The notes below the pieces were generated by a model. It saw nothing but the letters and a program-made list of their open reading frames with translations, was not told the origin of the DNA and searched no databases. Below are positions 8,034-59,656 of a stretch of 64,000 bases of DNA, piece by piece. The DNA is from Chloroflexota bacterium. GTDB taxonomy: Bacteria; Chloroflexota; Limnocylindria; Limnocylindrales; CSP1-4. The translations under genes and the position numbers were made by a program. Position 1 is the stretch's first letter. Each line of letters opens with the position of its first letter. The DNA is taken from the NCBI GenBank assembly GCA_947475545.1, contig CANJLL010000002.1, positions 144,950 through 208,949 on the forward strand. The letters run 5' to 3'.

Positions 8034-8048
8034 GCGGCGGCCCCAAGG

Positions 8049-8669: not shown

Positions 8670-8675
8670 CGCGCG

Positions 8676-11648: not shown

Positions 11649-11955
11649 CGCCGAGGACCGGCTGGCCCGTCAGGGCGGCCAGGGTCAGGCCGACGAGGGC
11701 TAGGACGAAGGGCGCTAGACGCTCACGCATTCCTGGGTTCGAATTCCTGATCTGATCCACTCGTCCTCCTTGCCGGGAGGATACGGCCGAGCCGATGGAA
11801 GAGCACGTGCACCAGCCCCGGCGGGGCTGGCTTCGGTGGTAGGCTGGCGCCCGAACGTGGTGTCCCAGCGTCGGGGCCCTCCGCGGTCGACCGTCGCGCG
11901 CCTGCACGAGCGCCGCCGGATCATCGCTGAACGCCAACCTGGTGGAACCCGACCG

Positions 11956-14191: not shown

Positions 14192-14812
14192 GGGGACCTA
14201 CCTCGCTGACCCGGGCTGCGCCGTAGCTCCCGCAACCCGCGGACTCCTGTCCGCCCACGGTACGCCTTCCCCCGCCATGACGGGCCAGTGCCCAAGTACC
14301 CATGCCGCGGGGGCCGGATGGACGGGTTACGGGACCGCGCCACGCGGGATCGGGCCGGCGGCGCCTTGCGGCGGCGGATCTTCCGGCCGACCCGAGGCGC
14401 CAGGCAGGTTGGCGCATCGGGATGTTCCCCCCGGATACAACCTGACGAGAATCGCGCTACCGATCGGGCTTCGGGGTCGACATTTGCCGGGTCGACCCCC
14501 CAACTCCGGTGATTCTGTACCGGCAAGGAACCAATTCGGCGATTTCTGGCCTCTTGGGCCTGCCAGTGGGGGAATCAACGACAGGTTGTCCTCCACGGGA
14601 ACATCCGTCGGGCCGGACGGCCCGGACGGGGTCCGCGTGGCCCGGCTCCGCATGGCAAGTGCCACGGACCCGCTCCGCATGGCCCGCGTCGGCGGGGGCC
14701 CGATCGCGAAGCGCGCGACGGAGCATCGGGCCGAACGCCAACGGCATCGGGCGGGCGCTGGTACTTCCGGGTCGTGGTGCGGATTGCGGCGGACTGCGAC
14801 GGTCCGGGTGCG
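14192..14812 (+). promoter_or_regulatory. long (~620 bp) non-coding leader upstream of a secreted peptidase gene, a candidate structured cis-regulatory RNA
   Basis: No credible ORF. It holds a perfect 9-bp palindrome GGGGTCGAC-N9-GTCGACCCC (~14470-14505) and G-rich blocks (GGGGGAATCA, CCACGGGAAC, CCGGACGGGGTCC). Confidence 0.35.
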
Positions 14813-16354
14813 ATGTTTCCCGGCCGTCACCCCAGCCCCAGCCGGTTGGCGGCCTCTCCAGACAACGTACGCCGAGGTCCCCGCTTGCCCCAGTTCGCGC
14901 CCAGGCGCGCCCGTGGCCTCACGCGCGCACGCGCCGTCGTCCTGGTGGCGGCATCGATGCTCGCCCTGCTCACACCCTCGGCCGCCTCCGCCGCCTCCCC
15001 GCAGCCGTTCCCCGGCTACCAGCCCGCCTTCGTGACCGAGCGCGAAGACGGGCCCTGGCGGGACTGCGTCTGGGCGTCCGCCGCGATGCTCCTGGACAAG
15101 TGGACGAGCGGGGAGACGATCGTCAGCCGCCAGCGGCTCCGGGCCCTGTCCGGCGATGGTCAGGGCGGCTCGGGCCTCAGGGAGGTGCGGGCCGCGTTTG
15201 CGCGGCTGGGATTCCGCCTCACGATCTCGCCGTACGACAGCGTGGCCATCGACTGGCCCGATCTCCTGGATCGCCTTGCCGCGGGCGGCGGGGCGATCCT
15301 GCTGGGCGACGACGGCCTGCTGCCGGCCCAGTTCGGCCGGTGGGATCCCGTCTTCTGGGGCCGAACCGGCGACCTGGACGACCATGCGCTCTACCTGGAC
15401 GGCTACGACCGGGAGACCGGCAGGATCCTGGTCATGGACCCGCTGGCTCCCGCCGACTGGGGCGGTGAATGGATCCCCGTCTCGGCGCTCAAGCGGTTTG
15501 CCTGGCGGAACGGCAACGGCGCCCTCTCGGTGGCCATCACGCCGCCCGCGCTGACATCGTCGTTCCAGGGCGTCACGCTGGGGGCCCCAACGGCCACAGC
15601 CGATGCCGCCGCGGTGCATCTGGCGTGGCCGATCGGGGCCGCTCCCGCCGGGTGGACCGACCAGGGCACCAGGCTCACCACGCAGATCGTGCCGGTCGAG
15701 GTCATGGACCCGCTGGCCTGGATCGTGAGGGCGCTCCCCGCGAACGCCGCCGCCCGTCTGCGGGCGGACGCCGTCATGTCCAGTGCCGACGGGTTGCTCA
15801 GGGCTTCGATCCCGCTGCCGGCGGCGTCGGGGATCTACAGCGTCTCCGTCTCGCTGGCGGATCAGGTCCTGGGCCAGCTGGTGGCCGCCGCCGGGCCGTT
15901 CAACCTGTATTTCCCCGGCCCGCGAGCGGCCGCCTACGAGATCCCCGACCGCGTCGTGGCCGCCGCCGGGTCGCTGGCGTATATCCCCGTCAGGGTCACC
16001 AATGCGGGCAGCGAATCATGGGCGGAAGTGCCGTTCGTTCCCTGGCTGTCACCCGTCGACCAGGGCTGTCGGAACATGCGGCTGACCGGTAGCTGGGTGC
16101 GCGATCCGTCCACGACGCCCGCGGGCGCCGCCTTGCCAAGGCCGCCCGCGTCCTTCGACCTGGGCGCCCTCCACCTGGAAGCCGGCGACTCGAAGACGAT
16201 CGATGCCGCCGTCCGAATGCCGGTGAACGCGGGCTCCTGGCGGCTGGTCTTCGACCTGGTCGACGACCTTGGCCAATCGCTGGCGGTCACGGGCTCGGCG
16301 CCCGGGGTGATCATCGTGGAGACGGTTGGGCCAGGGCCGGTGGGCGGGCAGTAG
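14813..16354 (+). CDS. secreted protein with N-terminal papain-fold (C39/NlpC-like) cysteine peptidase-like domain
   Basis: Signal peptide ...RARAVVLVAASMLALLTPSAASAAS. Candidate catalytic Cys (WRDCVWASAAMLL) and His (DDHALYLDGYD). The start could be a downstream TTG. Confidence 0.6.
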   Translation: MFPGRHPSPSRLAASPDNVRRGPRLPQFAPRRARGLTRARAVVLVAASMLALLTPSAASAASPQPFPGYQPAFVTEREDGPWRDCVWASAAMLLDKWTSGETIVSRQRLRALSGDGQGGSGLREVRAAFARLGFRLTISPYDSVAIDWPDLLDRLAAGGGAILLGDDGLLPAQFGRWDPVFWGRTGDLDDHALYLDGYDRETGRILVMDPLAPADWGGEWIPVSALKRFAWRNGNGALSVAITPPALTSSFQGVTLGAPTATADAAAVHLAWPIGAAPAGWTDQGTRLTTQIVPVEVMDPLAWIVRALPANAAARLRADAVMSSADGLLRASIPLPAASGIYSVSVSLADQVLGQLVAAAGPFNLYFPGPRAAAYEIPDRVVAAAGSLAYIPVRVTNAGSESWAEVPFVPWLSPVDQGCRNMRLTGSWVRDPSTTPAGAALPRPPASFDLGALHLEAGDSKTIDAAVRMPVNAGSWRLVFDLVDDLGQSLAVTGSAPGVIIVETVGPGPVGGQ

Positions 16355-16358
16355 GGAT

Positions 16359-17087
16359 CTAACCCGCTGTGATTGGTTTGAGGACGAAGACTATGGCCCT
16401 GTACTCGCGACCGTCTTTGACAGTCCGCTCAGCCTCATGCCTGAGATACTCAAACCGACCACCGTAGCGGTAGACCTCGCCGAGCTTCTGGAAGAGGTGC
16501 AGTCGGGGACTTCGGTCAATCACGGCTCGGTTGTGGGCCGTCAAGACCATGTCTCCCTCACCGCTCCACGCGCCGTAGTAGCGGTACAACCCAGCCTCCC
16601 AGCGGTCTCGGTATCCATGCTCGTGGGCGGCATTGGGGTCAGAAAAGAGCATGGTGAAGGCGGCGCCGGCTGGAGAACTGATTCCCGTCTGGCGATTGCC
16701 ACCGAACCGATCATGTAGGTGCGTCCGCCGATATGTGTCACCAACAACGAGCGCGCCTTCGGGATCCGCGAGCGGCCCGTCATGGGCCACAACGCGTGGC
16801 TTTCGTTTGTCGGGCCGGGTCGGCGCCCCCAGCTGACCCAGAACGGCCTCCAGGTCGCGTTCAACCTGTGACGATAGGGGCGATCGAAGGGCTGCTCGTA
16901 GGCAACGGACCGCCTCGACGCCTGCTCCGAATTCGGCGGTGCGCGCGATTGTTCGGACGGCGAACGCCGCCATGACCGGATCTCGCAGCCAAGGTTCCAG
17001 CGCGGCGATCGCTGCCGCGCCATGTTTGGCAATGGGGTCACGAAACTCAATCCTCACGGCCGGAGGAGATTCGGTCGCACCAACCAT
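16359..17087 (-). CDS. SRA/YDG-like (PUA-superfamily) modified-base reader domain protein
   Basis: C-terminal half: VGDTYRRTHLHDRFGGNRQTGIS...YRDRWEAGLYRYYGAWSGEG...YRYGGRFEYLRHE...YRAIVFVLKP, matching SRA hallmarks. ATG at 17087, 38 nt after the upstream helicase stop. Confidence 0.6.
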   Translation of the reverse strand: MVGATESPPAVRIEFRDPIAKHGAAAIAALEPWLRDPVMAAFAVRTIARTAEFGAGVEAVRCLRAALRSPLSSQVERDLEAVLGQLGAPTRPDKRKPRVVAHDGPLADPEGALVVGDTYRRTHLHDRFGGNRQTGISSPAGAAFTMLFSDPNAAHEHGYRDRWEAGLYRYYGAWSGEGDMVLTAHNRAVIDRSPRLHLFQKLGEVYRYGGRFEYLRHEAERTVKDGREYRAIVFVLKPITAG

Positions 17088-17125
17088 CGCCTGGTGAAGC
17101 GTTAGGTCACTCGGATCGATTGGCA

Positions 17126-19036
17126 CTAGTCGAGCTCCCGGAAGCCCGACGCGACGAGGAACTCGTAGGTTTCGTCCCACAGTGGCGCCGGCGGGACGAA
17201 CACGACGTTTGCGTCTCGAGCCCTGGTGAGCAGCACGCGGTAGGCATTGACTCTCAGCTGGCGAGCATCACGGATCCGCTGCGGTTGCTGGTACCGCTTC
17301 GCTCGGCTCGTGTCCCAGCGGCCGCCCTTACGGATGAAGTCGGCGCCCCATGCGACGAGAGCGGCGTCGAGCTCTAGGCCCTGAGCTCCGAATTCGGTAA
17401 CGCAAGTTCGAAGTGCGCGGCATGACCGACCGAGGTAGTCGGCATCGCCCTCGACGTACCACGGGCCATATTCAAAGCGCTGAAACCGACCCTGGCTCTG
17501 GTTAGGAATGCCGAAGCGGAACAACTCCTTGTCGCGCGCACTCGCCACAATCCCAAACCTGGCGTCAGGATCACCATCGTATCGACCTCGCAGATACGCC
17601 TTCGCTTGATCGAGATCTCGCGTCACCCGGAGGTGGTGCCCCTGGCCTTCGAGGCGGCGTGCGAGGTCCCCAAGATCCTCGGCGGCCTCGTCGCCGACAA
17701 GGGTCCCGACGAAGCGATCGATCTCAGTGGCCAGATGAAAGCGGATCGCCACGTCGAGGTGCAAGGCGGACGACCTGTGAAATGAGCCATACCCGTCAAA
17801 TGTCACCGCGACCTGAGAAGGTCCGTGGACGGTCCAACCTCCCCCCGATCCATCGACCGCAGCGCGCCATTGGCGGAGTCCGCCCTCCTCACCAATGTGG
17901 ATCTCCTGGCCCTGGCCGATGAGACCGATGACGACGCACCAACCCGGAACCCGCTCGGCGAACTCAAGGAAGTGTTCGGGTTCCGATCGGCCATCTCCGC
18001 GCCCACCATGCTTCTCCGCGACCTGGGCGGCGTCCCACGCCCGTTGTGCCTCGTCGTAGATCAGGACGTGCTCGCCCGGGATCAGGGATGGATTCCGTGT
18101 ATAGCGCTCCACGTAGTCCTTGACGCCGCGGACGAAGGCCTTACCCCCGCCCCCAGAGCCGCGAAACTCGTATTGGAGAACTTCCACGAGGGGGCCGTTG
18201 CCCGACAGGTATACGCCGGGTGGCAGCTTCCGGCCATCCTGCCGTGCGACGGCGAGGTCGTCGAGGTACCGGGCATGGGCCACCTGGAGGCCGACGAGCG
18301 TCTTCCCGGCTCCAGGAACTCCGGTGAGGAGGATCAGGCGACGGGTCCCCGTCGCCGCGGCCTCGTGGATGATTCGATTGACTTCGTCCAGAGCCGGCTT
18401 GGTGTTCATCGCCGCGCGGTGAACACGCCGCAACGTCCCGCTGTCAAACAGCTCACGCGCCGCTTCGACGATGGTTGGCAGAGGAGAGTAGGCCTCGGCC
18501 GCAAGGAACCGCTCGGGATCGATCGGAGGAAGCTGGCCTCGATCGATCTCATCGACCAGCCCATCGATGGCGTCGAGGCCCACGACTTGAACGCCGGCGA
18601 TCTCCCCCATGCGCCCAGATGCGCGAGTCAGGACCAGCACGGGGTGCACGGCCCGGTTGTGGCACTCCGCGTGATAGGCCAGCAGGTCCCGCGCATAACC
18701 GGCGGCTTGATCGACGTCGGCGAGAATTGCTGCTCCCTTGCCCTTGACCTCCAGAACGAGCACGGCACCCGACGCAAGAAAGATCACGTCCGGCCGTCGT
18801 CGCTCCATCGGCAGCTCGTACTCAAGAATGGCGGAGTAGTCGGCGGACGGCGCATATCTGGCCATCACCTCGCTTACTTCGCGCTGCAGTGGAGAAATGG
18901 AGTCATCCCAGGCCCGAATCTGCTCGGGCGAGGCGTCACGGATGAATTGCTCAAGCGAGCCGCGAATCACAACTGGCGACGTTGCCCGAAACTCTTGCCA
19001 TGGGGACGCCCAGCCATAGCGAGCTACCTCGGTCAT
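17126..19036 (-). CDS. NERD-domain + DUF2075 (P-loop SF1-like helicase) protein
   Basis: N-terminal NERD (PDVIFLASGAVLVLEVKGK), Walker A LLTGVPGAGKT, DEAQ box LIYDEAQRAW, C-terminal LLTRARDANVVFV. ATG at 19036 with GGAGGAG SD. Confidence 0.8.
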   Translation of the reverse strand: MTEVARYGWASPWQEFRATSPVVIRGSLEQFIRDASPEQIRAWDDSISPLQREVSEVMARYAPSADYSAILEYELPMERRRPDVIFLASGAVLVLEVKGKGAAILADVDQAAGYARDLLAYHAECHNRAVHPVLVLTRASGRMGEIAGVQVVGLDAIDGLVDEIDRGQLPPIDPERFLAAEAYSPLPTIVEAARELFDSGTLRRVHRAAMNTKPALDEVNRIIHEAAATGTRRLILLTGVPGAGKTLVGLQVAHARYLDDLAVARQDGRKLPPGVYLSGNGPLVEVLQYEFRGSGGGGKAFVRGVKDYVERYTRNPSLIPGEHVLIYDEAQRAWDAAQVAEKHGGRGDGRSEPEHFLEFAERVPGWCVVIGLIGQGQEIHIGEEGGLRQWRAAVDGSGGGWTVHGPSQVAVTFDGYGSFHRSSALHLDVAIRFHLATEIDRFVGTLVGDEAAEDLGDLARRLEGQGHHLRVTRDLDQAKAYLRGRYDGDPDARFGIVASARDKELFRFGIPNQSQGRFQRFEYGPWYVEGDADYLGRSCRALRTCVTEFGAQGLELDAALVAWGADFIRKGGRWDTSRAKRYQQPQRIRDARQLRVNAYRVLLTRARDANVVFVPPAPLWDETYEFLVASGFRELD

Positions 19037-19091
19037 GGCTCCTCCTCTTCGTCCCGACTCGTCTGAGTTTCGACCGCACCGAAGGTAACCC

Positions 19092-21317
19092 GTGGCGCAA
19101 GCCCGGAGTGTCCCAACCCGTCAGTCATCTGACCAGGCGCCGGCTGGCACGTCGGCGCCGTCCGGCCTGTTCTCGGACGGCCACCCCGTACTGATCCCGC
19201 TGGCCGTGTCAGGCGAGGTGGCACCTGCTGGCCGCAGACTACCGCGCATGGAAGCCGTGGAGCCCGAGACAGACAAGCGCCTCCAGGCCCTGCTGGAGCA
19301 GATGTTCGGCCCACAGGCTGAGTTTCGGCCGGGCCAGCTGGAGGCCATCCAGGCCGTCCTTGATGGGTCGCGCACCCTCGTCGTCCAGCGGACCGGATGG
19401 GGGAAGAGCCTGGTCTACTGGCTGGCCACGCGGATGCTGCGCGACCAGGGCCGGGGGCCCACCCTGGTGATCAGCCCGCTGCTGTCGCTGATGCGCAACC
19501 AGATCGACGGGGCCACGGCCCTTGGCCTCCGCGCGGTGACCATCAACTCCGCCAATCGGGCCGAATGGGATGACGCCCGGGCGGCGCTGGAGGCGGGCGG
19601 TGTCGACGCCCTCCTGATCTCGCCGGAACGGCTGGGGAATGAGCGGTTCACCACGGAGATCCTGCCGTCGATTCCGGGCGGGATCGGCCTTGTCGTGATC
19701 GACGAGGCGCACTGCATCTCCGACTGGGGCCACGACTTCCGGCCCGACTATCGGCGGATCCAGCGCATCATCAACAACCTGCCGCCCAACGTGCCGCTCC
19801 TCGCCACCACGGCGACGGCCAACGACCGTGTGGTCGCGGACGTCATCGAGCAGCTGGGTGGTGATGTGGTGACCCTGCGGGGTCCGCTCGCCCGCGCCTC
19901 GCTGCGTCTCCAGGCGATCTACCTGCGCGACGGCGCCGAACGGCTGGCGTGGCTGGCGGAACACCTCCCGGGCCTGCCGGGCAGCGGCATCGTGTACTGC
20001 CTCACCATCGCGGACACGGAGCGGGTCGCCGAGTGGCTCCGACTGAACGGGGTGGACGCGGCGGCCTACCACGCCAGGGTGGAGCCGGATCGGCGGGTGG
20101 AGCTGGAAGGCCGCCTCCTCCGGAACGACCTCAAGGTCCTCGTCGCCAGCACCGCCCTGGGCATGGGCTTTGACAAGCCGGACCTGGGCTTCGTCATCCA
20201 CTACCAGCGACCCGGTTCCGTCATCGCGTACTACCAGCAGGTGGGCCGCGCCGGGCGCGCCATCGACACCGCGTACGGGGTGCTGCTGAGCGGCCGCGAG
20301 GACGACGAGATCAACGACTACTTCATCCAGAGCGCGTTCCCGCCCGAGGCGGACATGCGCGCGGTCCTGGCGGCCCTGGAGCGCGTCGAGACAGCCACGG
20401 TGCCGGCGCTGGAGTCGCGGCTCAACATCCGGCGCAGCCGGATCCAGCACATCCTCAAGCTCCTGGAGCTGGACGGCGCGGTTGGCCGCGAGGGATCCAG
20501 CGTCTTCCGAACGCCCAACCCCTGGCTGCCCGACACCGAGCGGATGGAACGCGTCACCGCCCGCCGACGCGAGGAGCTGGCGCACCTTCGCGCGTACATG
20601 ACCCACGACGGCTGCCTGATGGCCTATCTGACGTCGGCACTCGACGATCCCAGCCAGGCGCCGTGTGGGCGCTGCGCCCCGGAGACCGGACAGCTGCTCC
20701 CGGTCACGCCCAATCCGGCCATGATCCAGCGGGCCATCGGCTTCCTGCGCGGCGCATGGCGCGGCATCGAGCCGCGGCTCCAGTGGCCGCCCGGGGCGCT
20801 GGCCGGGCACAGCGGCCGGATCACGCCGCCGAACGAGCCGGGCCTGGCGCTCTCGTTGTACGGCGACGCGGGCTGGGGCAGGCTGGTCGCCGACGGCAAG
20901 TACCGCGACGAGCGGTTCGACCAGGCGCTGGTGGAGGCGTCGGCCCAGATGATCCGGGCGCGCGGCCTGGTGCCGGCGCCGGCCTGGGTCACGGCGATCG
21001 CGTCCTTGCGGCGGCCAGGCCTGGTCCCCGATTTCGCCCGGCGGCTGGCCGAAGCGCTTGGGCTTCCGTTTCACGACGTGCTGGCGGCCGCCAATACCCG
21101 GCCCCAGAGGGAGATGGAGAACAGCGGGGCGCAGCTCAGGAACGTGGCCGGCATGACCGTGGCCGGCGCCTGTCCGACGGGCCCCGTCCTGCTGGTCGAT
21201 GACGTCGTGGACTCGCGCTGGACGCTGACGTACGGCGGTTGGCTGCTGCGCCAGCACGGTGCGGGTCCGGTCCACCCGTTTGCGCTCGCGATGGCCACGC
21301 CGCAGGATGACGGCTGA
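19092..21317 (+). CDS. RecQ-family helicase fused to C-terminal ComF/type-I PRTase-like domain
   Basis: RecQ motifs TGWGKSLVY, VIDEAHCISDWGHDFRPDY, ATATA and a Zn-finger C..C..C..C. The C-terminal ~150 aa carry a PRTase loop VLLVDDVVDSRWTLT. GTG at 19092 (GAAGG SD) or ATG at 19248. Confidence 0.8.
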   Translation: MAQARSVPTRQSSDQAPAGTSAPSGLFSDGHPVLIPLAVSGEVAPAGRRLPRMEAVEPETDKRLQALLEQMFGPQAEFRPGQLEAIQAVLDGSRTLVVQRTGWGKSLVYWLATRMLRDQGRGPTLVISPLLSLMRNQIDGATALGLRAVTINSANRAEWDDARAALEAGGVDALLISPERLGNERFTTEILPSIPGGIGLVVIDEAHCISDWGHDFRPDYRRIQRIINNLPPNVPLLATTATANDRVVADVIEQLGGDVVTLRGPLARASLRLQAIYLRDGAERLAWLAEHLPGLPGSGIVYCLTIADTERVAEWLRLNGVDAAAYHARVEPDRRVELEGRLLRNDLKVLVASTALGMGFDKPDLGFVIHYQRPGSVIAYYQQVGRAGRAIDTAYGVLLSGREDDEINDYFIQSAFPPEADMRAVLAALERVETATVPALESRLNIRRSRIQHILKLLELDGAVGREGSSVFRTPNPWLPDTERMERVTARRREELAHLRAYMTHDGCLMAYLTSALDDPSQAPCGRCAPETGQLLPVTPNPAMIQRAIGFLRGAWRGIEPRLQWPPGALAGHSGRITPPNEPGLALSLYGDAGWGRLVADGKYRDERFDQALVEASAQMIRARGLVPAPAWVTAIASLRRPGLVPDFARRLAEALGLPFHDVLAAANTRPQREMENSGAQLRNVAGMTVAGACPTGPVLLVDDVVDSRWTLTYGGWLLRQHGAGPVHPFALAMATPQDDG

Positions 21318-22387
21318 TGACCATCCACCATCAGCTGGGCGCCAACGGACTGGCCATCCTCGCCCTCACGGCTCGAGGCGGCGCCGGGCGGCGGGCCGGG
21401 ATCGGCGCGGGGTCCCGGGTCGGGCAGGCGGATCTCCCTGCGCCGCTTCGATCGCGGGAGTGGGCGCACCTCGCGCGAAGCCTCGCCCTTGCGGGCGCGC
21501 AGCCGGCCGACCTGCTCGGCTGGAGCTCGGCGGAGATCGCCGCGGCCCTTGGTACAACCCCGGCCGCCAGCGACGAGCTGGCACGCCTGGCCAGCCGGGC
21601 ATCAACGCTGGCCCTGGACGTGGAGCGACTGGGCAGCCGCGGGATCTGGCTCCTGAGCGTGGACGACTCCGCCTACCCGGGGCGGCTGCTCGCGCGCCTC
21701 GGCGACCTGGCGCCGCCAATCCTGTATGGATCGGGCGCACTCGAGGTCCTGGGCCGCGGGGGCATCGCGATCGTCGGCTCGAGGGATGCGGACACCGACG
21801 CGCTGGCGTTCGCGTCGGCCGCCGCCGCCGCAGCCGCCGGGGCAGGCCGCTCCGTCGTGTCCGGCGGGGCGCAAGGCATCGATGTCGCCGCGATGTCTGC
21901 CGCCGCGGCGGCGGGCGGTTTGGTGGTGGGCGTGCTCGCCGAGAGCCTGGAACGGCGGATCCGGGCGGTGGAGACGCGGGCGCTCATCGCGGAGGAGCGA
22001 CTGGCCCTGGTCTCACCGTACGGTGCCGACGTGTCGTTCTCCATTGGGAATGCCATGGGCCGCAACCGGCTGATCTACTGCCTCGCGGATGCGGCGATCG
22101 TGGCGGCAGCGGCCGAAGGCGAAGGGGGAACCTGGGCCGGCGCCACGGAGGCGCTCGACGCGCGATGGGTGCCCGTCTACGTCCGCGTCTCCGCCTCGGC
22201 GCCGTCGGGGAACCGGGCCCTTGCGGATCGTGGCGCCATCCCATTCGCGTCGGACGCGGCGGCGACTGGCGGCCTGCCGTTCGCGGGCGACGACCCGGCG
22301 GGCGCGGCGCTCCCGGCGTCGTCCGTCTCCCCGGCACCGCCCAAGCGGGCGGCCGAGCAGCAGACGCTCTTTGGTGGCGACCGGTAG
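21317..22387 (+). CDS. DprA/Smf-like (SLOG Rossmann) protein
   Basis: GIAIVGSRDADTDALAFA...VVSGGAQGIDVAA...NRLIYCLADAAIV. The ATG overlaps the RecQ-PRTase stop (TGATG). Confidence 0.8.
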   Translation: MTIHHQLGANGLAILALTARGGAGRRAGIGAGSRVGQADLPAPLRSREWAHLARSLALAGAQPADLLGWSSAEIAAALGTTPAASDELARLASRASTLALDVERLGSRGIWLLSVDDSAYPGRLLARLGDLAPPILYGSGALEVLGRGGIAIVGSRDADTDALAFASAAAAAAAGAGRSVVSGGAQGIDVAAMSAAAAAGGLVVGVLAESLERRIRAVETRALIAEERLALVSPYGADVSFSIGNAMGRNRLIYCLADAAIVAAAAEGEGGTWAGATEALDARWVPVYVRVSASAPSGNRALADRGAIPFASDAAATGGLPFAGDDPAGAALPASSVSPAPPKRAAEQQTLFGGDR

Positions 22388-22496
22388 ACCTGGTAACGGG
22401 GAGGCCTGCCGACGGCGTCGCCGAGCTGAGCCCGGCAGCCCGCGCCAGGCGGGCTTCATTGGTTGACTTCTACCCAGTCATGGGTAGACTTCTACC

Positions 22497-22745
22497 GTGA
22501 CCCTCAACATCAAGAATCCGGAGACCACGCGGCTCATCCGCGAGCTCGCGCAGGCCACCGGGGAGTCGCTGACACAGGCCCTGACCACGGCGGTCCGGGA
22601 GCGCCTGGGTCGCGTACGCGCGCAGGCCCAGCCGGACGACGTCTGGGCCATCGTGGACGAGATCCGGTCGCGGCTGCCCGCCGGCTACCTGGACCAGGAT
22701 TTCGACGGCCTGCTCTACGACGAGACGACGGGGCTCCCCAGGTGA
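22497..22745 (+). CDS. vapB: type II antitoxin, VapB-like (Rv0623-type MTLNIKNPE...)
   Basis: GTG at 22497. 82 aa. Its stop overlaps the toxin start (GTGA). Confidence 0.75.
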   Translation: MTLNIKNPETTRLIRELAQATGESLTQALTTAVRERLGRVRAQAQPDDVWAIVDEIRSRLPAGYLDQDFDGLLYDETTGLPR

Positions 22746-23182
22746 TCGTGGACACGTCGGCGCTGGTCGCGATCCTGCGTCGGGAGGCGGACGCGCCCGC
22801 CATCCTCCAAGCGCTGCGGTCCCTCAGCCCGCGACGGATGTCGGCCGGGACCTACCTTGAGCTGGGGCTCGTCATCGACGGGGCGCGGGATCCGACGGCA
22901 TCGACGCTGCTGGACGACCTGATCGAGGCGTTGGACATCACCATCGAGCCGGTCACGGCGGCCCAGGCCCGCATCGCTCGCGGCGCGCACCAGGAGTTCG
23001 GCCGCGGGAGCGGCCATCCCGCCGGCCTCAACTTTGGGGATTGCTTCGCCTACGCGCTGGCCAAGGATCTCGACGAGCCGCTGCTCTTCAAGGGCGACGA
23101 CTTCGCCCAGACGGATATCCCCTTCGTGGGCCGGCGCCAGGAGCGCGGGCGCCTTCGCGAGCTCCTCGCCGCGTACGGCTGA
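22742..23182 (+). CDS. vapC: PIN-domain toxin VapC
   Basis: VIVDTSALVAIL...LNFGDCFAYALA. Lies in the frame of ORF 22463..23182. Confidence 0.75.
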   Translation: MIVDTSALVAILRREADAPAILQALRSLSPRRMSAGTYLELGLVIDGARDPTASTLLDDLIEALDITIEPVTAAQARIARGAHQEFGRGSGHPAGLNFGDCFAYALAKDLDEPLLFKGDDFAQTDIPFVGRRQERGRLRELLAAYG

Positions 23183-23222
23183 CGGCGCGGCACCGACCGA
23201 TCGAGGGCCGTCCTGGCTTCTG

Positions 23223-23272
23223 AACTGCTAAGTTGGCACGAATTGGCACTCGATTAGCAGTTGCCCTCGGCC
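23223..23272. terminator. bidirectional hairpin between convergent genes (9-bp arms AACTGCTAA/TTAGCAGTT; the loop holds a TTGGCAC direct repeat)
   Basis: Direct reading between the vapC end (23182) and the convergent HD gene. There is no U-run, so it may instead be a protein-binding site. Confidence 0.4.
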
Positions 23273-23409
23273 GCGGTCAGGCGCCCGCTGCTGGTCTGCC
23301 ATCACGCCCCCGCCAGCCGCTCCATCTCCCCCACCACCCGATCCAGCTCGGCGATCAGGTCCGTGGGCGCGGCCGGGTTCGCCTGGAACGCCGTCACCAG
23401 CGAGCGGTA

Positions 23410-23907
23410 CTACCAGATTGGGTCCGAATCCGGGTTGAAGCGCCCGAACATCGACGGCCCGTGCCGGCGGAGGTCCGCGACGATGCTGCGGGCGTTGTGG
23501 AGCTTGTCCGAGGCCGAGACCAGCAGCACCGCGGCGTCCGCGTGGGCCAGGTGGGCGATGTAGGCCTCCTTGCGCGGCGGCCAAGGCGGCTTCGACTCCT
23601 CGTGGGCATCCGTGCAGGCCAGGACCAGCCGGAGGACTTCGGAGCCGAAGGCCGCCACCGTCTCCCGCGCGCCGGGCGCGTAGTGGACGTCCTCGATGGC
23701 GTCGTGCAGGACGGCCGCGATGGCCTGGTCCTCGTTGGCCCCGTAGTCCAGGGCGATGCTGCACGTCCCCAGCAGGTGCGACGCGTAGGGAATGGTGGTC
23801 CCCTTGCGCAGCTGGGCGGCGTGCATCTCCAGGGCCACGCTCACGGCGCGCACGAACCGCGGGGTGTACGCCCACGGCTCCGCCGGGATCGGATGCCCGG
23901 CTGTCAT
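23410..23907 (-). CDS. HD-domain phosphohydrolase, ending at an in-frame TAG. The same frame continues for 32 more codons to 23313.
   Basis: HD motifs HLLGTCSIALDYG...LHDAIED...DKLHN. After the TAG the frame reads YRSLVTAFQANPAAPTDLIAELDRVVGEMERLAGA, then TGA at 23313. Confidence 0.7.
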   Translation of the reverse strand: MTAGHPIPAEPWAYTPRFVRAVSVALEMHAAQLRKGTTIPYASHLLGTCSIALDYGANEDQAIAAVLHDAIEDVHYAPGARETVAAFGSEVLRLVLACTDAHEESKPPWPPRKEAYIAHLAHADAAVLLVSASDKLHNARSIVADLRRHGPSMFGRFNPDSDPIW

Positions 23908-23917
23908 CGGCTCACCA

Positions 23918-23952
23918 TTGACGCATCTGGTGTCGGAATTCATACTCTCTTT
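23918..23952 (+). promoter_or_regulatory. sigma70-like promoter (TTGACG-17-CATACT) for the AbrB-type antitoxin operon, with an ATGCAT-centred imperfect palindrome downstream
   Basis: Direct reading ttgacgcatctggtgtcggaattcatact. AT-rich for this genome. Confidence 0.45.
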
Positions 23953-23980
23953 AACTCAGTATGCATATTGGAGATTGGGT

Positions 23981-24262
23981 ATGGGCAGCCGCGTTGGCGA
24001 GCGGGGCCAGGTGACCATCGAGAAGGCCATCCGGGAGCAGCTGGGCGTGTACGCCGGCGACCAGGCCGTCCAGCGGGTGGAGGACGGCCGCGTCGTGATC
24101 GAGTTCATCCCGGCACCACACGACCGAAGCCTGCTGGGTGTCCTGAAGGACAAGGTCCGGCGCTGGCCGGAGGACGAAAGCGACTTCGCGGCGATCCGCG
24201 AGTCGGCCTGGGAGACGCCCGATCCGGATCGGCTGCCACCCGTTGACGATCGGTCCGCATGA
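23981..24262 (+). CDS. AbrB/MazE/SpoVT-family antitoxin
   Basis: GQVTIEKAIREQLGVYAGDQAV...GRVVIEF. GGAGA SD. The stop overlaps the toxin ATG (ATGA). Confidence 0.75.
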   Translation: MGSRVGERGQVTIEKAIREQLGVYAGDQAVQRVEDGRVVIEFIPAPHDRSLLGVLKDKVRRWPEDESDFAAIRESAWETPDPDRLPPVDDRSA

Positions 24263-24654
24263 TCGCGCTCGATACCTCGGTCATCGTCCGGTACCTGGTC
24301 CAGTCGCCGCCCGAGCCCGCCCGGCGCGCCGGCGAGCTGCTGGATGGTGGCGGGGAGATCGGGATCCCGGTGGTGGTGCTGCTGGAGACCGCGCACGTGC
24401 TCCGCACGATCTACGCGGTCCCGCGACCGGACGTCGCCACCGTGCTCATCGAGCTGCTGACGCGACGGAACGTGCGGCTCCTCGGCCTGGGCGTCGACGA
24501 TGCGATCGACGCCCTGGTGCGAGCCCGGGCCCTGCCGGGGACGCCGATCGCCGACGCGCTCATCGTGGCCATGGCCAAGGCCGCCGGAGCGCGGCCGCTG
24601 TACACGTTCGACCTGGGGCTCGCGCGCCACGGGATCGAGATCGCCGTTCCGTGA
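24259..24654 (+). CDS. vapC: PIN-domain toxin VapC
   Basis: MIALDTSVIVRYL...LLETAHVL...ADALIVAMA. Confidence 0.8.
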   Translation: MIALDTSVIVRYLVQSPPEPARRAGELLDGGGEIGIPVVVLLETAHVLRTIYAVPRPDVATVLIELLTRRNVRLLGLGVDDAIDALVRARALPGTPIADALIVAMAKAAGARPLYTFDLGLARHGIEIAVP

Positions 24655-24694
24655 CGTTCCGCTGGTCTTGACCGCGCCCGTGGGACGTCCTACC

Positions 24695-25024
24695 ATGCGT
24701 CCTACCATGTCAGAGACTTCTTCCTACCTCGCCACCGGCGTCGCGGAGGCGGTGACCCCGTACGGCGCGGATGGCTCGGGCGCCCCGCACACCAAGTTGT
24801 CCATCAGCCTGCCATCGGACCTGGTGGCCGTGATCCGCCAGGTCTCGGAGCAGACCGGGCTGACGATGAGCGCCACCATCGGTGCCTGCGTTCGCCGGAC
24901 GCTGGCCCTGGTGGAGCAGGAGCGCCTGGACCGCGCATTGGAGCTGGACGCGGAGGAGAACCTGGCGTGGGCGGGTGCGCATCTGCCCGCCGCGGCGCGG
25001 CTCTGGGAGTCAATCGAGTGGTAG
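24695..25024 (+). CDS. ribbon-helix-helix (CopG-like) antitoxin
   Basis: KLSISLPSDLVAVIRQVSEQTGLTMSATIGACVRRTL. The 12-bp duplication cgtcctaccatg creates two candidate ATGs (24695 and 24707). Confidence 0.6.
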   Translation: MRPTMSETSSYLATGVAEAVTPYGADGSGAPHTKLSISLPSDLVAVIRQVSEQTGLTMSATIGACVRRTLALVEQERLDRALELDAEENLAWAGAHLPAAARLWESIEW

Positions 25025-25392
25025 GGATCGGTCGCGTGCTGCCCCCAGTCGGGCCCCGGCGCGGCGACGTTCACTTCGTGGCCTTCCCGGACCTGGATGG
25101 TCGTGTCATCAGGGGGCCGCATCCCGCAGTAGTGGTCCAGTCGGACCGCCTGGCCCGGTCGGCCACCGTGATCGTGGCACCGCTGACTAGCGCCCCCCGC
25201 TCCGCCCCTGAACGTCCCCCGTACCTGGTGCCGCTGGCGGCCCGCGAGGCGGACCTGCCCCGGGATGGCTTCATCAAGTGCGACCAGCTGACCACGCTCC
25301 CGGTCTCCCTCCTGGGTCCCCGGGTTGGTCGGCTCAACCCCGAGGCCATGGGCCGGCTGGACGCCGCCCTGCGGTTCGTCCTGGCGCTCTGA
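25018..25392 (+). CDS. mazF: MazF/PemK-family toxin
   Basis: RRGDVHFVAFP...HPAVVVQSD...TVIVAPLTS...GFIKCDQLTTL. The GTG overlaps the antitoxin stop. Confidence 0.7.
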   Translation: MVGIGRVLPPVGPRRGDVHFVAFPDLDGRVIRGPHPAVVVQSDRLARSATVIVAPLTSAPRSAPERPPYLVPLAAREADLPRDGFIKCDQLTTLPVSLLGPRVGRLNPEAMGRLDAALRFVLAL

Positions 25393-25415
25393 TCGGGCCG
25401 CCCGGCGGCTGAGGG

Positions 25416-25832
25416 CTATGCGGCGCCTCCGGGCCGCGCGTTCGGCACCGTCGCGAATCCCGCCGTCCGGAAGTCCGCGTCCAGCGCGATCGCCCGATCG
25501 ATGCCCTCCCGCCGCATGCAGGCGAAGCTGGTCCGGTCGACCAGGGAGACGGAGGATTCGACCGTGTCTCGAAAGGCGGTCAAGGCCGCGGCATGGAGCT
25601 CCGCGTCCACCGGCATGACCTCCAGGGCAGGAAGCACGTGGTCGATGATGCCGGCGGCCGTCGCCGCGCCAAAGCGCCGGCGGGCCACCGCGAGGGTCTC
25701 AACCACGACGTAGGCGTGTGTCACGAGGCGCTCCGTGTGGCCGGCGGCGAAGGCCGCCACGACGCCCTCGTGCGCCGGGTCGTCGCGGTCCACCAGCGCC
25801 AGAATGCCGCTGGTGTCGACGAACAGGGTCAC
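25416..25832 (-). CDS. vapC: PIN-domain toxin VapC
   Basis: MTLFVDTSGILALVDRDDPAH...VVVETLAV...DRTSFACM. Confidence 0.8.
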   Translation of the reverse strand: MTLFVDTSGILALVDRDDPAHEGVVAAFAAGHTERLVTHAYVVVETLAVARRRFGAATAAGIIDHVLPALEVMPVDAELHAAALTAFRDTVESSVSLVDRTSFACMRREGIDRAIALDADFRTAGFATVPNARPGGAA

Positions 25833-26071
25833 CAGCGATCCCCGCTCAGGACCTCATCGTGATCGCGCGCGACGGTGCCGGTTCCGGACGCCGCGGTGCC
25901 GGCCACCGACAGCAGCCCCTCCATCCGGGCCGCGCGCTCGGCGTCCTGGGTGGGCACCACCTGGTCCACCGCGTCGCGGATGACCGCGGCCAGCGACACG
26001 TGACGGCGGCGAGCCTCACGGCGGAGGCGCTCCATCTGCTCCTCGGTCAGCGAGACCTGCGTCCTGATCAT
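25829..26071 (-). CDS. ribbon-helix-helix antitoxin (VapB/CopG-like)
   Basis: MIRTQVSLTEEQMERLRREARRRHVSLAAVIRDAV. Overlaps the vapC start (ATGA). Confidence 0.7.
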   Translation of the reverse strand: MIRTQVSLTEEQMERLRREARRRHVSLAAVIRDAVDQVVPTQDAERAARMEGLLSVAGTAASGTGTVARDHDEVLSGDRW

Positions 26072-26177: not shown

Positions 26178-26729
26178 TTACCGGAGGCGGTAGTGCTTCG
26201 CCCTTAACGCGCTGACCGCCGCCTCCGCGTCGTTGGCGTAGATGATCCCGGCGAACGGGCGGGCGGCCGTGATGAGCTCGTACGCCTCCTCCGGCTCGTG
26301 GCCCAGCGCGCGCAGCACCGCGTAGGCGGCCGACGGCCCGCGGTTGATCCCCGCCCCGCAGTGGAGCAGCACGCGGGCGTTGGGGTTCGCGTCCAGCGCC
26401 CGCAGCGAGAAGGTGATCGACCGCTCGAACCAGGCCGTCCGCTTGGCCGTGCCGTCGTCCCAGGTGCCGTTGGCCAGGTGGACCGCCCGGCCGGCCAGGA
26501 GCCGGCGGACATCGGCCTCCAGCTCGCGGGCCGCGGTCACGACGTGGGTGATCCCGGCGTCCAGCACGGCCCGCGCGTCCGCCTCGTCCCAGAGCGCGCC
26601 GCCGGTGGCGACGCGCGGGGTGACGAAGTCGAAGTCCCCGGGCCGGCGGAGGGTCCACCCGCCCGGGGTCCAGGTCCGGCCGCCTGGCGTGCGGCGGCCG
26701 GGACCGGGTTCGGGAGTCCGCTCCGCCAT
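26178..26729 (-). CDS. dual-specificity / tyrosine protein phosphatase (CX5R)
   Basis: Active site VLLHCGAGINRGPS. The ATG lies 1 nt after the VWA gene stop (TGAgATG). Confidence 0.8.
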   Translation of the reverse strand: MAERTPEPGPGRRTPGGRTWTPGGWTLRRPGDFDFVTPRVATGGALWDEADARAVLDAGITHVVTAARELEADVRRLLAGRAVHLANGTWDDGTAKRTAWFERSITFSLRALDANPNARVLLHCGAGINRGPSAAYAVLRALGHEPEEAYELITAARPFAGIIYANDAEAAVSALRAKHYRLR

Positions 26730-26730
26730 C

Positions 26731-28065
26731 TCAGGCGTTTGGGTCACGCCGCATCGGCGCCCCCATCTCCATCCGCGACTTCATGCGGTACGCGGAGGCC
26801 GAATACGCCAGCTTGCGGGTCCCCTCCTCCTGCATGACCGACCAGCGCTCGGCCTCACGCTCCAGCTCGTCCACGATCCCGCGCAGGACCTCGTCGCGAC
26901 CGGCATAGCCGCGGATCCGCTTGGCCACGGCGCGCAGGGCGTGGCGCGCCTGCTCCAGCTCGCCGCGGCGGTTGAGCGCCACCACGTCCCGGAGCGCCCG
27001 GTCCGCGTAGGCCCGCGCCACCAGGCGATCCACTTCCCGGTCGCGCGGCTGGCCGTCGTTGGCCAGGGTGTCCGCGTAGCGCCAGGTGAGCGTCTCGCTG
27101 TGGGCCACGCGCCCGTCGGCATCCGCCAGGGCCAGCTCCACGCCCACGGTGCGATCCACCTCGCCCATCGGGAAGGTGAGCGCCACCACCAGCCGGACCA
27201 CCTGGTCGGAAACGAGATCGCCCAGGTGAACGACGCCCCCACCGGTCTTCGGCTCGAAGGCGAAGGCCCCGATGGGCTCCACCTGGATCCCGCTGGCGGG
27301 CCCTGCGGTGGCGAAGCGCAGCTGGACGCCGCGCGCGGTCACCTCCAGCAGCTCGCCGACCTCGGCCGCGATGAGGGTGGGGATGTCCGCCGGGCTGCCG
27401 ATGAACCGGAAGGACCCGCCGCCGGCGTCGGCCATGGCGCCAAGCAGCGCCTCGTCGAAGTCCTCCCCCACGCCGAACGTGGAGGTGGAGACGCCGCGTG
27501 CCCTGAGCGCCGCAGCGTGCGCCGTCAGCTCGGACGGATTGGTGATCCCCTGGTTGGCCAGGCCGTCGGTCAGGAGGAGCACGCGGTTGACGGCCGCGGG
27601 ATCCAGCGCCTCGGCGACCTGCTCCGCGCCGCTGAGCCAGCCGCCCGCCAGATTGGTGTTGCCGCGGGGCTCGATGGCCGCGATCGCGCGATCCGCCGAC
27701 GTCTTGCCCTCGGCGGTCGCCGGACGGCCGGCCGCGACCACGTCGATTCGATCGTCGTAGACCACGACGGCGAACCGGTCGTCGTGGGCCAGGCGCGCGA
27801 TGCCCTGGCGGACGGCATCCCGGGCCAGCTCGATCTTGCGGCCGCCCATGGAGCCCGAGCGGTCCAGGACGAAGGCCACGTTGACGCGCGGCCGAACGGA
27901 GGTGGCCGTGGCGGCGGGCGCGGTGACCTCCACCGCCAGGTAGCGGGTGGAGTGGTGGATGGCCCGGACCAGCCCGCGATCCGGGCGGACGGCGAGGGTG
28001 GGGGTGTTGCCGGTGGCGGCCCGGTTGGTGGCGGCGTCGGTGTGGGTGGGGGTCGTGTCGGTCAT
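26731..28065 (-). CDS. von Willebrand factor type A (VWA) domain protein
   Basis: MIDAS motif VLDRSGSMGG; ...LLTDGLAN. ATG at 28065 with AGGAGGA SD. It overlaps the MerR stop (ATGA). Confidence 0.8.
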   Translation of the reverse strand: MTDTTPTHTDAATNRAATGNTPTLAVRPDRGLVRAIHHSTRYLAVEVTAPAATATSVRPRVNVAFVLDRSGSMGGRKIELARDAVRQGIARLAHDDRFAVVVYDDRIDVVAAGRPATAEGKTSADRAIAAIEPRGNTNLAGGWLSGAEQVAEALDPAAVNRVLLLTDGLANQGITNPSELTAHAAALRARGVSTSTFGVGEDFDEALLGAMADAGGGSFRFIGSPADIPTLIAAEVGELLEVTARGVQLRFATAGPASGIQVEPIGAFAFEPKTGGGVVHLGDLVSDQVVRLVVALTFPMGEVDRTVGVELALADADGRVAHSETLTWRYADTLANDGQPRDREVDRLVARAYADRALRDVVALNRRGELEQARHALRAVAKRIRGYAGRDEVLRGIVDELEREAERWSVMQEEGTRKLAYSASAYRMKSRMEMGAPMRRDPNA

Positions 28066-59605: not shown

Positions 59606-59656
59606 GCTGGGCGGCCACGAGGTCCGGGCGAGGATAGCCCTGCCTTCTCACGAGCG

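Follow-up and report, generated by a model that had tools for sequence, protein, structure and literature searches.

A probable chromosomal hot spot for defense and toxin-antitoxin modules in an uncultured freshwater Chloroflexota

Two divergent helicase operons followed by a run of small toxin-antitoxin (TA) genes occupy the 16.3–26.1 kb segment of the 64,000-nucleotide stretch of DNA analyzed here (the window), which comes from an uncultured freshwater relative of Ca. Limnocylindria within the Chloroflexota. We asked whether these genes form one system, one mobile island, or a collection of separate units. The initial annotation had proposed a composite defense/addiction island in which separate nucleic-acid-targeting modules precede type II TA pairs, and domain and family matches bear out this content. 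Most of the modules have been described before, and in kind this is an ordinary defense and TA island. We consider it likely that the segment is a chromosomal defense/TA hot spot in which a conserved gene is followed downstream by a mosaic of modules, each autonomous, that lie together because hot-spot loci gather cargo and not because they constitute one system. The features discussed below, referenced in part to a sister MAG (L004), are as follows.

14885–16354, plus strand: left-flank gene, 489 aa, no Pfam family; conserved and outside the island
16357–19176, both cassette genes together with 140 bp of upstream DNA that belongs to them: exchangeable SRA-helicase cassette, delimited by its absence from L004 and by composition
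16359–17126, minus strand: protein with a HEAT-like helical repeat at the N-terminus and an SRA domain at the C-terminus
17126–19036, minus strand: 636-aa protein with a predicted PD-(D/E)xK-like domain and a Schlafen-group-3/DUF2075 SF1 helicase; PADLOC candidate PDC-S41
19037–19247, intergenic: chimeric head-to-head spacer of 211 bp, defined by blastn and pairwise alignment to L004 and by codon-position GC
19248–21317, plus strand: PsyrT/RqlH toxin, with RecQ-family SF2 helicase core, winged-helix region and C-terminal PRTase-like domain; PADLOC PsyrT
21317–22387, plus strand: PsyrA/RqlI, DprA-like (SLOG/Rossmann) antitoxin; PADLOC PsyrA, 4.4e-92; PF02481, 8.6e-33
22497–23182, plus strand: VapB, Rv0623-like (22497–22745; PF07704, 4.7e-20), and VapC PIN toxin (22742–23182; PF01850, 1.6e-15)
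23410–23943, minus strand: stand-alone HD_4 (RelA/SpoT-type hydrolase-like) protein, 177 aa; PF13328, 4.8e-18
23981–24654, plus strand: AbrB/MazE-type antitoxin (23981–24262; TIGR01439, 2.7e-07, above cut-off) and PIN toxin (24259–24654; PF01850, 4e-13)
24695–25392, plus strand: RHH-like antitoxin (24695 or 24707 to 25024) and PemK/MazF toxin (25018–25392; PF02452, 2e-21)
25416–26071, minus strand: RHH antitoxin (25829–26071, ORF reaching 26143; PF01402, 6.5e-07) and PIN toxin (25416–25832; PF01850, 3.6e-14)

The locus was compared with two relatives, L004 and the Ca. Limnocylindrales MAG L005. The left-flank gene (GC3 = 0.89) is present in both, at 87% and 45% amino acid identity respectively, and anchors the hot spot without being a member of the island. 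Nucleotide homology between the window and L004 on the left flank stops at 16356 and resumes at 19177; between the same breakpoints, L004 has a 3244-bp stretch that codes for a type IV enzyme of the SauUSI family with PLD-helicase-DUF3427 architecture (SauUSI 7clg_A, 6.7e-90; PADLOC mREase_IV, 5.1e-276). The flank, PsyrTA, and VapBC are kept in L004 at 88.7%, 94.8%, and 94.4% nucleotide identity, and L004 has an extra TA/Fic insert relative to the window. In L005, the left-flank gene is followed directly by the RHH-MazF pair, with the MazF at 70% amino acid identity. Among contigs of the window's own species, synteny is identical throughout. Composition marks out the same interval: the cassette has the lowest GC of any 2.8-kb stretch in the 64 kb (0.641 against 0.71; z = −3.1) and a tetranucleotide deviation of z = +3.2, while PsyrTA and the TA block, with GC of 0.726 and 0.706, resemble the host. 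GC3 is 0.64–0.73 in the cassette genes versus 0.87–0.90 in PsyrTA, and the two operons differ in residence time; the helicase value (0.73) resembles that of its homologs elsewhere (0.72–0.76), and PsyrT stands at 0.90. The cassette is therefore a recent, exchangeable insert. On the best reading, type-IV-like restriction cassettes are swapped at the hot spot by allelic exchange, which would proceed through homologous recombination at the conserved flanks.

These comparisons had been put forward in the initial annotation, which held that an old, fixed locus would show identical synteny in relatives and no compositional deviation. Both relatives differ from the window, and 16.36–19.18 kb is a strong compositional outlier. 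The segment is not one compositional unit.

The two cassette genes form a translationally coupled operon, and this two-gene SRA and nuclease-helicase module is the sole mildly new element of the island. Gene callers start the SRA protein at ATG 17087 (242 aa); it is probably 255 aa from GTG 17126. Its partner matches PDC-S41 end to end (3e-124), has an SF1/Schlafen fold, and bears Walker A (G238–T245) and DEAQ (327–330) motifs. In the N-terminal domain, E71, D82, and E95-x-K97 are invariant, and this motif together with the predicted topology suggests a PD-(D/E)xK-like nuclease. The domain had been called NERD, which we could not confirm: no family model matched it, Pfam gave no match even with the N-terminus isolated, and comparison with a NERD protein by hhalign was also negative. 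The helicase family is large (>6000 homologs at 1e-10) and located in defense islands. PDC-S41 is a purely computational candidate, for which our literature search found neither mention nor experimental validation.

Adjacent SRA and helicase genes occur in the window and in L006, L010, and L012, and homologs of the two (P0002 and P0050) share one 4153-bp contig; gene order varies among these pairs, and overlaps span 1–11 nt. On viral contig L100, a Tudor and SAD_SRA protein lies directly upstream of a 36%-identical helicase, and other distant helicases are flanked by a C5-cytosine methylase and an HNH nuclease. PADLOC lists PDC-S41 as a single-gene phage-defense candidate, and the window helicase shares its full-length match and defense-island setting; however, in the window and at four or more further loci it is paired and translationally coupled with an SRA-domain protein, and it is therefore not a single-gene system there.

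SRA domains are readers of modified cytosine. In the mechanism we propose, the SRA domain would flip out and recognize a 5mC/5hmC-type modified cytosine of the incoming DNA, the HEAT-like domain would tether the SRA protein to the helicase motor, and the ATP-driven helicase-nuclease would then translocate and cut the DNA. Both the physical interaction and the modification-dependent cleavage are predictions; if they hold, the pair would be a type-IV-like, ATP-dependent restriction enzyme split over two proteins, the functional equivalent of the SauUSI-family enzyme that fills the sister genome's slot as a single chain. SauUSI likewise joins a nuclease to an NTP-driven helicase-like motor and an SRA-like reader of modified cytosine (PMC3141236, PMC7913695), and it is a true SauUSI homolog that fills the identical slot in L004. 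The window differs in that its reader is encoded as a polypeptide of its own that carries a HEAT-like N-domain, its motor is SF1 Schlafen/DUF2075 rather than SF2, and its putative nuclease is PD-(D/E)xK-like rather than PLD, with no sequence homology between the two. The two-component logic of a modified-base reader plus NTPase and nuclease also recalls McrBC and McaZI neighborhoods (PMC6765204), although in the window an SRA domain serves as reader in place of DUF3427-DUF3883 or an McrB N-domain, and the NTPase is an SF1 helicase rather than an AAA+ GTPase. Lutz 2019 (PMC6765204) had already noted DUF2075 NTPases that are fused to PD-(D/E)xK domains and adjoin modification-dependent endonucleases.

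The head-to-head arrangement of the cassette and PsyrTA invites the view that they are one co-regulated or synergistic super-system with a shared bidirectional control region, in which PsyrTA could sense ssDNA or DNA ends made by the restriction module. The initial annotation had suggested such co-regulation from a very short, 55-bp shared region, taking 19092 as a possible PsyrT start. Gene callers, the register of the PsyrT HMM, homology to L004 (which begins at 19177), and codon-position GC instead agree on ATG 19248; GC by codon position is 0.77/0.65/0.73 across 19092–19247, as in non-coding DNA, and from 19248 onward GC3 is 0.91. This puts the spacer at 211 bp (19037–19247). Its first 140 bp (19037–19176) belong with the cassette, and the remaining 71 bp (19177–19247) are conserved with PsyrT in L004, giving PsyrTA its own conserved upstream region. 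A sigma-70-like promoter scan, whose E. coli-type consensus may be ill suited to Chloroflexota, found no match in the spacer.

Nor is the pairing conserved. Neither the helicase, the SRA protein, nor a SauUSI-like gene appeared at any of 80 other diverse PsyrT loci, 31 of which have >2.5 kb of upstream sequence, and the upstream neighbors of PsyrT are heterogeneous (40 loci). Conversely, six of seven other distinct helicase contexts lack PsyrTA. The seventh, L011, places a helicase of 74% identity head-to-head with a PsyrT of 72% identity, ~95 bp apart after IS removal, with flanks unlike those of the window and no SRA gene; the pairing is therefore not unique, and there may be some co-transfer or functional affinity between the two. 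The slot beside PsyrT in L004 again holds an ATP-dependent, modification-dependent nuclease-helicase, which also speaks for a functional link. Against these points stand the chimeric spacer, the unequal GC3 of the two operons, the survey counts, and the fact that PsyrTA works as a stand-alone two-gene system (Millman 2022, 10.1101/2022.05.11.491447). We regard a super-system as unlikely; the cassette is probably not a co-regulated partner of PsyrTA.

Somewhat less probable still is that horizontal transfer brought in the whole segment at once as one mobile genomic island, whether integrative or degenerate. Its accessory gene content, the differences among L004, L005, and the window, and the presence of distant helicase homologs on 22 IMG/VR viral contigs would fit such an origin. 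But, as the initial annotation had observed of the boundaries, we found no tRNA in the 64-kb window and no integrase or transposase among precomputed Pfam calls at 7–29 kb, and the boundary-repeat search that it had advised revealed neither direct nor inverted repeats flanking the cassette. Compositional deviation is confined to the cassette, and the sister MAG retains PsyrTA and VapBC while neighboring cassettes differ, indicating piecemeal gain and loss rather than one insertion.

The RecQ-PRTase gene (ending at 21317) and the DprA-like gene (21317–22387), described as an operon in the initial annotation, were confirmed but are not new: they are the known PsyrTA/RqlHI TA defense system. PsyrT, called as a 689-aa gene in metagenome contigs and 97% identical at the amino acid level in L004, matches positions 5–688 of the 689-position PADLOC model (1.8e-264), scores 255 bits against TIGR00614 recQ_fam, above its cut-off, and hits PDB RecQ at 1e-61; its isolated C-terminus matches Pribosyltran (E = 0.0017) and contains the motif VLLVDDVVDS. 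PsyrA begins on the last nucleotide of the PsyrT stop codon (TGATG, a 1-nt overlap) and lies immediately downstream of PsyrT in ~65 of the 80 diverse loci. ComF-like PRTases and DprA are both tied to transformation. That these are housekeeping recombination or natural-transformation genes, with the helicase a repair enzyme and no defense locus present, is nonetheless very improbable: apart from that association, it draws on RecQ-family and DprA Pfam/TIGRFAM similarities that fall far under equivalog cut-offs (RecQ 291 versus 640 bits, DprA 81 versus 191), the full-length PsyrT/PsyrA defense-model matches are much stronger, the locus sits among TA pairs and varies in relatives, and RqlH, whose PRTase domain is toxic, is toxic without RqlI (Russell & Mulvey 2015, PMC4670107).

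As in described PsyrTA/RqlHI systems (Sberro 2013; PMC4670107; 10.1101/2022.05.11.491447), a RecQ-like helicase with a C-terminal PRTase precedes an overlapping DprA-like gene, both PADLOC models are matched full length, and the gene pair is preserved as a unit across 80 metagenome loci. The DprA-like partner would hold the toxin in check, and the PRTase domain, once released, would cause DNA stress and growth arrest in an abortive-infection-type defense; PsyrTA is known as both a TA and an anti-phage system (10.1101/2022.05.11.491447), and the mechanism of ShosTA is treated in PMC11961720. The window's pair is set apart by its Chloroflexota host, by sharing only 47–73% identity with its closest metagenomic relatives from beyond the genus, and by a PRPP-loop motif of DSRWT, and by nothing further.

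The four type II TA pairs were confirmed by PIN, PemK, and antitoxin profile matches, and resemble VapBC and MazEF in having PIN or PemK toxins with small RHH/AbrB/Rv0623-like antitoxins upstream and 4-nt overlaps, with no notable departure apart from a weak RHH assignment for the MazF partner (RHH_1 E = 0.1). The ATGA/GTGA overlaps ascribed to every pair hold for three: VapB/VapC (GTGA; 94% amino acid identity in L004), AbrB/PIN (ATGA), and the minus-strand RHH/PIN pair (GTGA). The RHH/MazF junction is either a 7-nt overlap (GTGGTAG) or a 12-nt gap. The sigma-70-like scan described above, with the same caution about its consensus, found three sites versus 0.6 expected, each just upstream of a plus-strand antitoxin: 22463–22490 before VapBC, along with two GACTTCTACC repeats; 23918–23946 before AbrB/PIN; and 24668–24696 before RHH-MazF, overlapping a perfect 12-bp tandem repeat. 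The short direct repeats at two of these three sites are operator-like.

The TA block also contains the HD_4 gene, missed by the initial annotation; its product matches TIGR00691 (4.8e-12) over the hydrolase region only, and its GC3 is 0.93.

The genes recorded for the 16.3-26.1 kb segment in the initial annotation were confirmed, and that observation is largely real. Three kinds of component make up the island: PsyrTA, which is a known system; type II toxin-antitoxin (TA) pairs of the ordinary sort; and a type-IV-like cassette that is exchangeable and was gained recently. They lie in a window with a GC content of about 71% in which real genes have a GC3 of about 0.85-0.95.

Genes of the island (window positions, strand, description)
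ends at 16359, minus: helicase partner protein (SRA), downstream of the helicase
17126-19036, minus: helicase, 636 aa; Schlafen-group-3/DUF2075 (PF09848, 1.8e-52); PADLOC defence candidate PDC-S41 over its whole length
ends at 21317, plus: RecQ-like protein (PADLOC PsyrT)
21317-22387, plus: DprA-like protein (PADLOC PsyrA)
22497-23182, plus: Rv0623-type VapB and PIN protein
23410-23943, minus: HD_4 (SpoT-type hydrolase-like) protein, 177 aa; absent from the initial annotation
23981-24654, plus: AbrB and PIN proteins
about 24695-25392, plus: RHH-like and PemK/MazF proteins
25416-26071, minus: RHH and PIN proteins

Exact copies of the helicase and of the CoA-binding flank protein occur, in identical synteny, on dozens of freshwater metagenome contigs of the same species. 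Scanning species-representative genomes with the left-flank protein yielded two relatives: an uncultured Chloroflexi metagenome-assembled genome that is sister to ours (L004, 87% amino acid identity in this protein) and a Ca. Limnocylindrales genome (L005, 45%), the order of the latter being confirmed as a Chloroflexota lineage. Nucleotide homology with the sister genome falls into three blocks, at 14189-16356 (88.7%), 19177-22409 (94.8%), and 22434-23189 (94.4%). Between the first two, 2820 bp of the window (16357-19176), which hold the SRA and helicase genes plus 140 bp of upstream DNA, are replaced by 3244 bp encoding one 1034-aa protein with PLDc_2, ResIII, Helicase_C, and DUF3427 domains, which matches the SauUSI structure (6.7e-90) and the PADLOC model for type IV methyl-directed restriction (5.1e-276). 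One slot would hold alternative modification-dependent restriction modules, an SRA protein with a helicase-nuclease in the window versus a SauUSI-type enzyme in the sister genome. Between PsyrA and VapB, the sister genome has 2.4 kb of further sequence with a Phd/YefM-PIN pair and a Fic/AbiEi-like gene, and in L005 homologues of the RHH-MazF pair come straight after the flank gene. These differences therefore mark the locus as a hot spot at which modules are gained and replaced piece by piece. It offers a clean natural example of a defence hot spot, in a freshwater Chloroflexota lineage that has received little study.

Deviating composition and variable presence among relatives, both expected of an integrative genomic island, hold for 16357-19176 only; the rest is host-like. 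This cassette has the lowest GC of any 2.8-kb stretch in the window (0.641, z = -3.1), and its tetranucleotide deviation (z = +3.2) is tied for the largest, whereas PsyrTA (0.726) and the TA block (0.706) have host-like GC. GC3 of the helicase is 0.73, equal to that of homologues in other hosts (0.72-0.76), and that of PsyrT is 0.90, the host value, from which we conclude that the divergent operons were acquired at different times. The second region with a large tetranucleotide deviation is at about 59600-63600 (z about +3.2, GC 0.75), where a 1231-aa ORF occupies 59657-63352 on the minus strand.

Integrative genomic islands are marked by an integrase or recombinase, a tRNA or att target, and flanking direct repeats, whereas this segment has none of these. 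As first noted, integrase, transposase, and tRNA genes are missing from its boundaries: tRNA and Rfam scans of the 64-kb window found nothing, Pfam calls for the neighbourhood (7-29 kb) contained no integrase or transposase families, and around 16357 and 19176 a search for direct repeats or att sites gave chance-level short matches only. We infer that the cassette was exchanged by recombination through conserved flanks, which fits the unmarked junctions. PsyrTA and VapBC (19177-23189) are closer to the sister genome (94.4-94.8% at the nucleotide level, 97% amino acid identity for PsyrT) than is the flank gene (88.7% and 87%), possibly through recent exchange between lineages or stronger constraint. 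Separately, in three Logan assemblies from three samples (L003, L097, and L098), the contigs all end about 480 bp into the 5' part of PsyrT, which may reflect strain-level heterogeneity at or near the junction in the natural population.

The RecQ-PRTase-DprA operon is PsyrTA/RqlHI, an already described toxin-antitoxin pair with anti-phage activity in which the antitoxin is DprA-like and the toxin carries a PRTase domain (10.1101/2022.05.11.491447); a relative of PsyrTA, ShosTA, has been structurally dissected (PMC11961720). The PADLOC PsyrT model matches end to end (1.8e-264, positions 5-688 of 689), and the protein encoded directly downstream in the same operon, with a 1-nt overlap (TGATG), matches PsyrA (4.4e-92) and PF02481 (8.6e-33). 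The N-terminal half of PsyrT is a RecQ-family SF2 helicase core (DEAD, 3.3e-22; Helicase_C, 8e-15; PDB RecQ, 1.1e-61), scoring 255 bits against TIGR00614 recQ_fam (cut-off 219.8) and far under the RecQ equivalog cut-off. Its isolated C-terminus matches Pfam Pribosyltran weakly (E = 0.0017, under the gathering score), and the motif VLLVDDVVDS can be read in this PRTase domain. By likeness to PsyrTA/RqlHI, the toxin at this locus would be toxic, PsyrA would neutralise it, and the pair would protect against phage.

The two operons had been described as diverging from a 55-bp shared control region, with co-regulation implied by its shortness. A PsyrT start at GTG 19092, on which that distance depends, was rejected: gene callers on public contigs carrying the exact proteins give a 689-aa PsyrT starting at ATG 19248, the PsyrT profile alignment begins at this methionine, homology with the sister genome on the PsyrT side starts only at 19177, and codon-position GC in 19092-19247 is that of non-coding DNA (0.77/0.65/0.73) versus a GC3 of 0.91 immediately after it. 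This makes the spacer 211 bp long, and the argument for co-regulation loses its support. A scan of 16-26.5 kb, with an E. coli-type consensus that may not suit Chloroflexota, found no sigma-70-like site in this spacer.

That helicase-SRA and PsyrTA together form one super-system is unlikely. Among 80 diverse metagenomic PsyrT loci (47-73% identity), PsyrA directly follows PsyrT in about 65, so conservation extends to these two genes only. None of the 80 loci, 31 of which include over 2.5 kb upstream, contains the helicase, the SRA protein, or a SauUSI-like gene. When the genes preceding PsyrT in 40 diverse loci were classified with Pfam and PADLOC, they formed a heterogeneous set (proteases, methyltransferases, BREX, Iet, and Mokosh among them) with no conserved partner. 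The only evidence for affinity between the modules is their recurrence in one of seven other distinct helicase contexts (L011), where helicase and PsyrTA stand head-to-head, split by IS insertions and with flanks that differ from those of the window; its spacer has no similarity to ours and cannot be aligned with it. In that stretch (L011 1-6000), PsyrT and the helicase are separated by an rve-type IS whose terminal inverted repeats are clear, and an IS21/Mu-like element breaks the PsyrT homologue near its C-terminus; the system appears to be undergoing decay there. The head-to-head arrangement should not be taken for a new composite system.

The PDC-S41 profile covers helicase residues 6-624 on model positions 3-633 of 657 (3e-124). 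We take the "S" in this name to denote a single-gene system; single-gene behaviour is not seen in the window, where the stop codon of the helicase gene and the SRA gene start overlap. This start is likely GTG 17126, judged from the TAGTG overlap and the N-terminal motif, common to homologues, that it restores. The small partner protein matched nothing in Pfam, PADLOC, and NCBIfam scans; it carries an SRA/PUA-type domain, a reader of modified bases, and its AlphaFold model (26-sequence alignment, pLDDT 89.6) comprises a six-helix N-domain and a beta-rich C-domain. Helicase and SRA genes adjoin, in either order and overlapping, in the window and in three other loci (L006, L010, and L012), and homologues of both (P0002 and P0050) share one 4153-bp contig. 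Close, full-length SRA homologues are rare (28 in 5.8 billion proteins); the helicase family is large (>6000 members), and many homologues have no SRA partner.

The helicase model (pLDDT 80) resembles SF1 helicases and human SLFN11. Its N-terminus has invariant E71, D82, and E95-x-K97 in a predicted alpha-beta-beta-beta-alpha-beta core that matched no family model, with no hit in Pfam, PDB-sequence, or hhalign searches. The NERD domain first assigned to it was not recovered: the NERD profile (PF08378) gave nothing at E <= 1 on the whole helicase or at E <= 10 on residues 1-230, and hhalign against a NERD protein from L010 aligned the P-loop only (probability 1.4). The module has no cognate methyltransferase: among the genes annotated with Pfam at 7-29 kb of the window, none belongs to a methylase family. 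On a viral contig (L100), a Tudor + SAD_SRA protein precedes a 36%-identical helicase inside a type I restriction-modification (R-M) locus. Distant homologues (about 29% identity) on three further viral contigs (L114, L119, and L121) have a C5-cytosine DNA methylase upstream and, downstream, an HNH nuclease (L114 and L121) or a RhuM-family protein (L119); the gene order in L114 and L121 resembles an R-M-like operon on the same motor. DUF2075 NTPases adjoining modification-dependent nucleases have been remarked on previously (PMC6765204), and the literature searched contained no mention of PDC-S41.

The SRA-helicase linkage, the Tudor-SRA and methylase contexts, and the DUF2075 precedent lead us to infer that the helicase and SRA protein would form a split, ATP-dependent, modification-dependent restriction module. 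More tentatively, at somewhat less than an even chance, the HEAT-SRA protein and the PD-(D/E)xK-DUF2075 helicase may constitute an uncharacterised two-component ATP-dependent type IV restriction system, with a detachable reader that would guide a Schlafen-like SF1 motor-nuclease onto modified DNA. Novelty is limited to the pairing of SRA with a Schlafen-like helicase-nuclease, which plausibly represents a new version of type IV restriction. Because the same motor family occurs with Tudor-SRA or methylase/HNH partners, it could be a general restriction motor re-targeted by partner swapping. Presumed functional equivalence with the SauUSI-type enzyme and the recurrent SRA partner suggest a hypothesis on the role of the widespread PDC-S41/DUF2075 candidate, which, if true, would give a mechanistic foothold on >6000 unvalidated defence candidates that are kin of eukaryotic Schlafen helicases.

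Two further features of these families emerged. In L013 (7917-11056) and L094 (4896-9052), a PDC-S41-type helicase overlaps the start of a DUF6361 gene, which is followed by a large second gene; those in L013 match PADLOC ZacA (2.4e-115) and ZacB (5e-160), and the helicase may be part of, or accessory to, a ZacA/ZacB-type system in some lineages. The HEAT-like N-domain (SRA protein residues 1-95, window 16842-17126) is rare (281 clusters at E <= 1e-3 among 1.84 billion representatives) and almost always N-terminal, with varied C-terminal fusions, or stand-alone. The L010 defence island holds three extra copies (3556-4095, 10730-11839, and 16187-16594), two of them beside helicase genes, and the domain occurs away from helicases in L008 and L009. 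A role as obligate helicase adaptor was rejected, as proteins P0040 and P0035 carry it with no helicase neighbour.

The four type II TA pairs originally reported (three VapBC, one MazEF) stand, each with a PIN (1.6e-15, 4e-13, and 3.6e-14) or PemK (2e-21) toxin preceded in one operon by a small DNA-binding antitoxin (PF07704, 4.7e-20; AbrB TIGR01439, 2.7e-07; RHH_1, 6.5e-07; the RHH match of the MazF partner is weak, E = 0.1). Their ATGA/GTGA overlaps are present at three of the four junctions, the RHH/MazF junction reading GTGGTAG. Three sigma-70-like sites occur in 16-26.5 kb versus 0.6 expected, each a short distance ahead of an antitoxin gene on the plus strand; two of them overlap short direct repeats. 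One repeat, GACTTCTACC, is present twice before VapB (22465-22496); the other is a perfect 12-bp tandem of CGTCCTACCATG before the RHH gene (24686-24709). Both look like putative antitoxin operators, and the tandem suggests that the RHH start may be ATG 24707 rather than 24695. The HD_4 gene stands alone between two VapBC pairs, with host-like GC3 (0.93), no adjacent synthetase partner, and no PADLOC match; its product might belong with the small alarmone hydrolases by which toxic alarmone synthetases are neutralised.

To the left, at about 8000-12500, gene calls in L001 and L096 (contigs covering this region) comprise two HTH(XRE)-Fic pairs, a Fic gene beside an adenylate/guanylate cyclase, a DUF5995 protein, and a GerE-type regulator. 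This neighbourhood also looks accessory, so the TA-rich region may extend well to the left of the segment. On the right flank, a three-gene run on the minus strand (26178-28880) encodes MerR-like, vWA-domain, and dual-specificity-phosphatase-like proteins, the first with a weak PADLOC mad1 match (1.3e-06).
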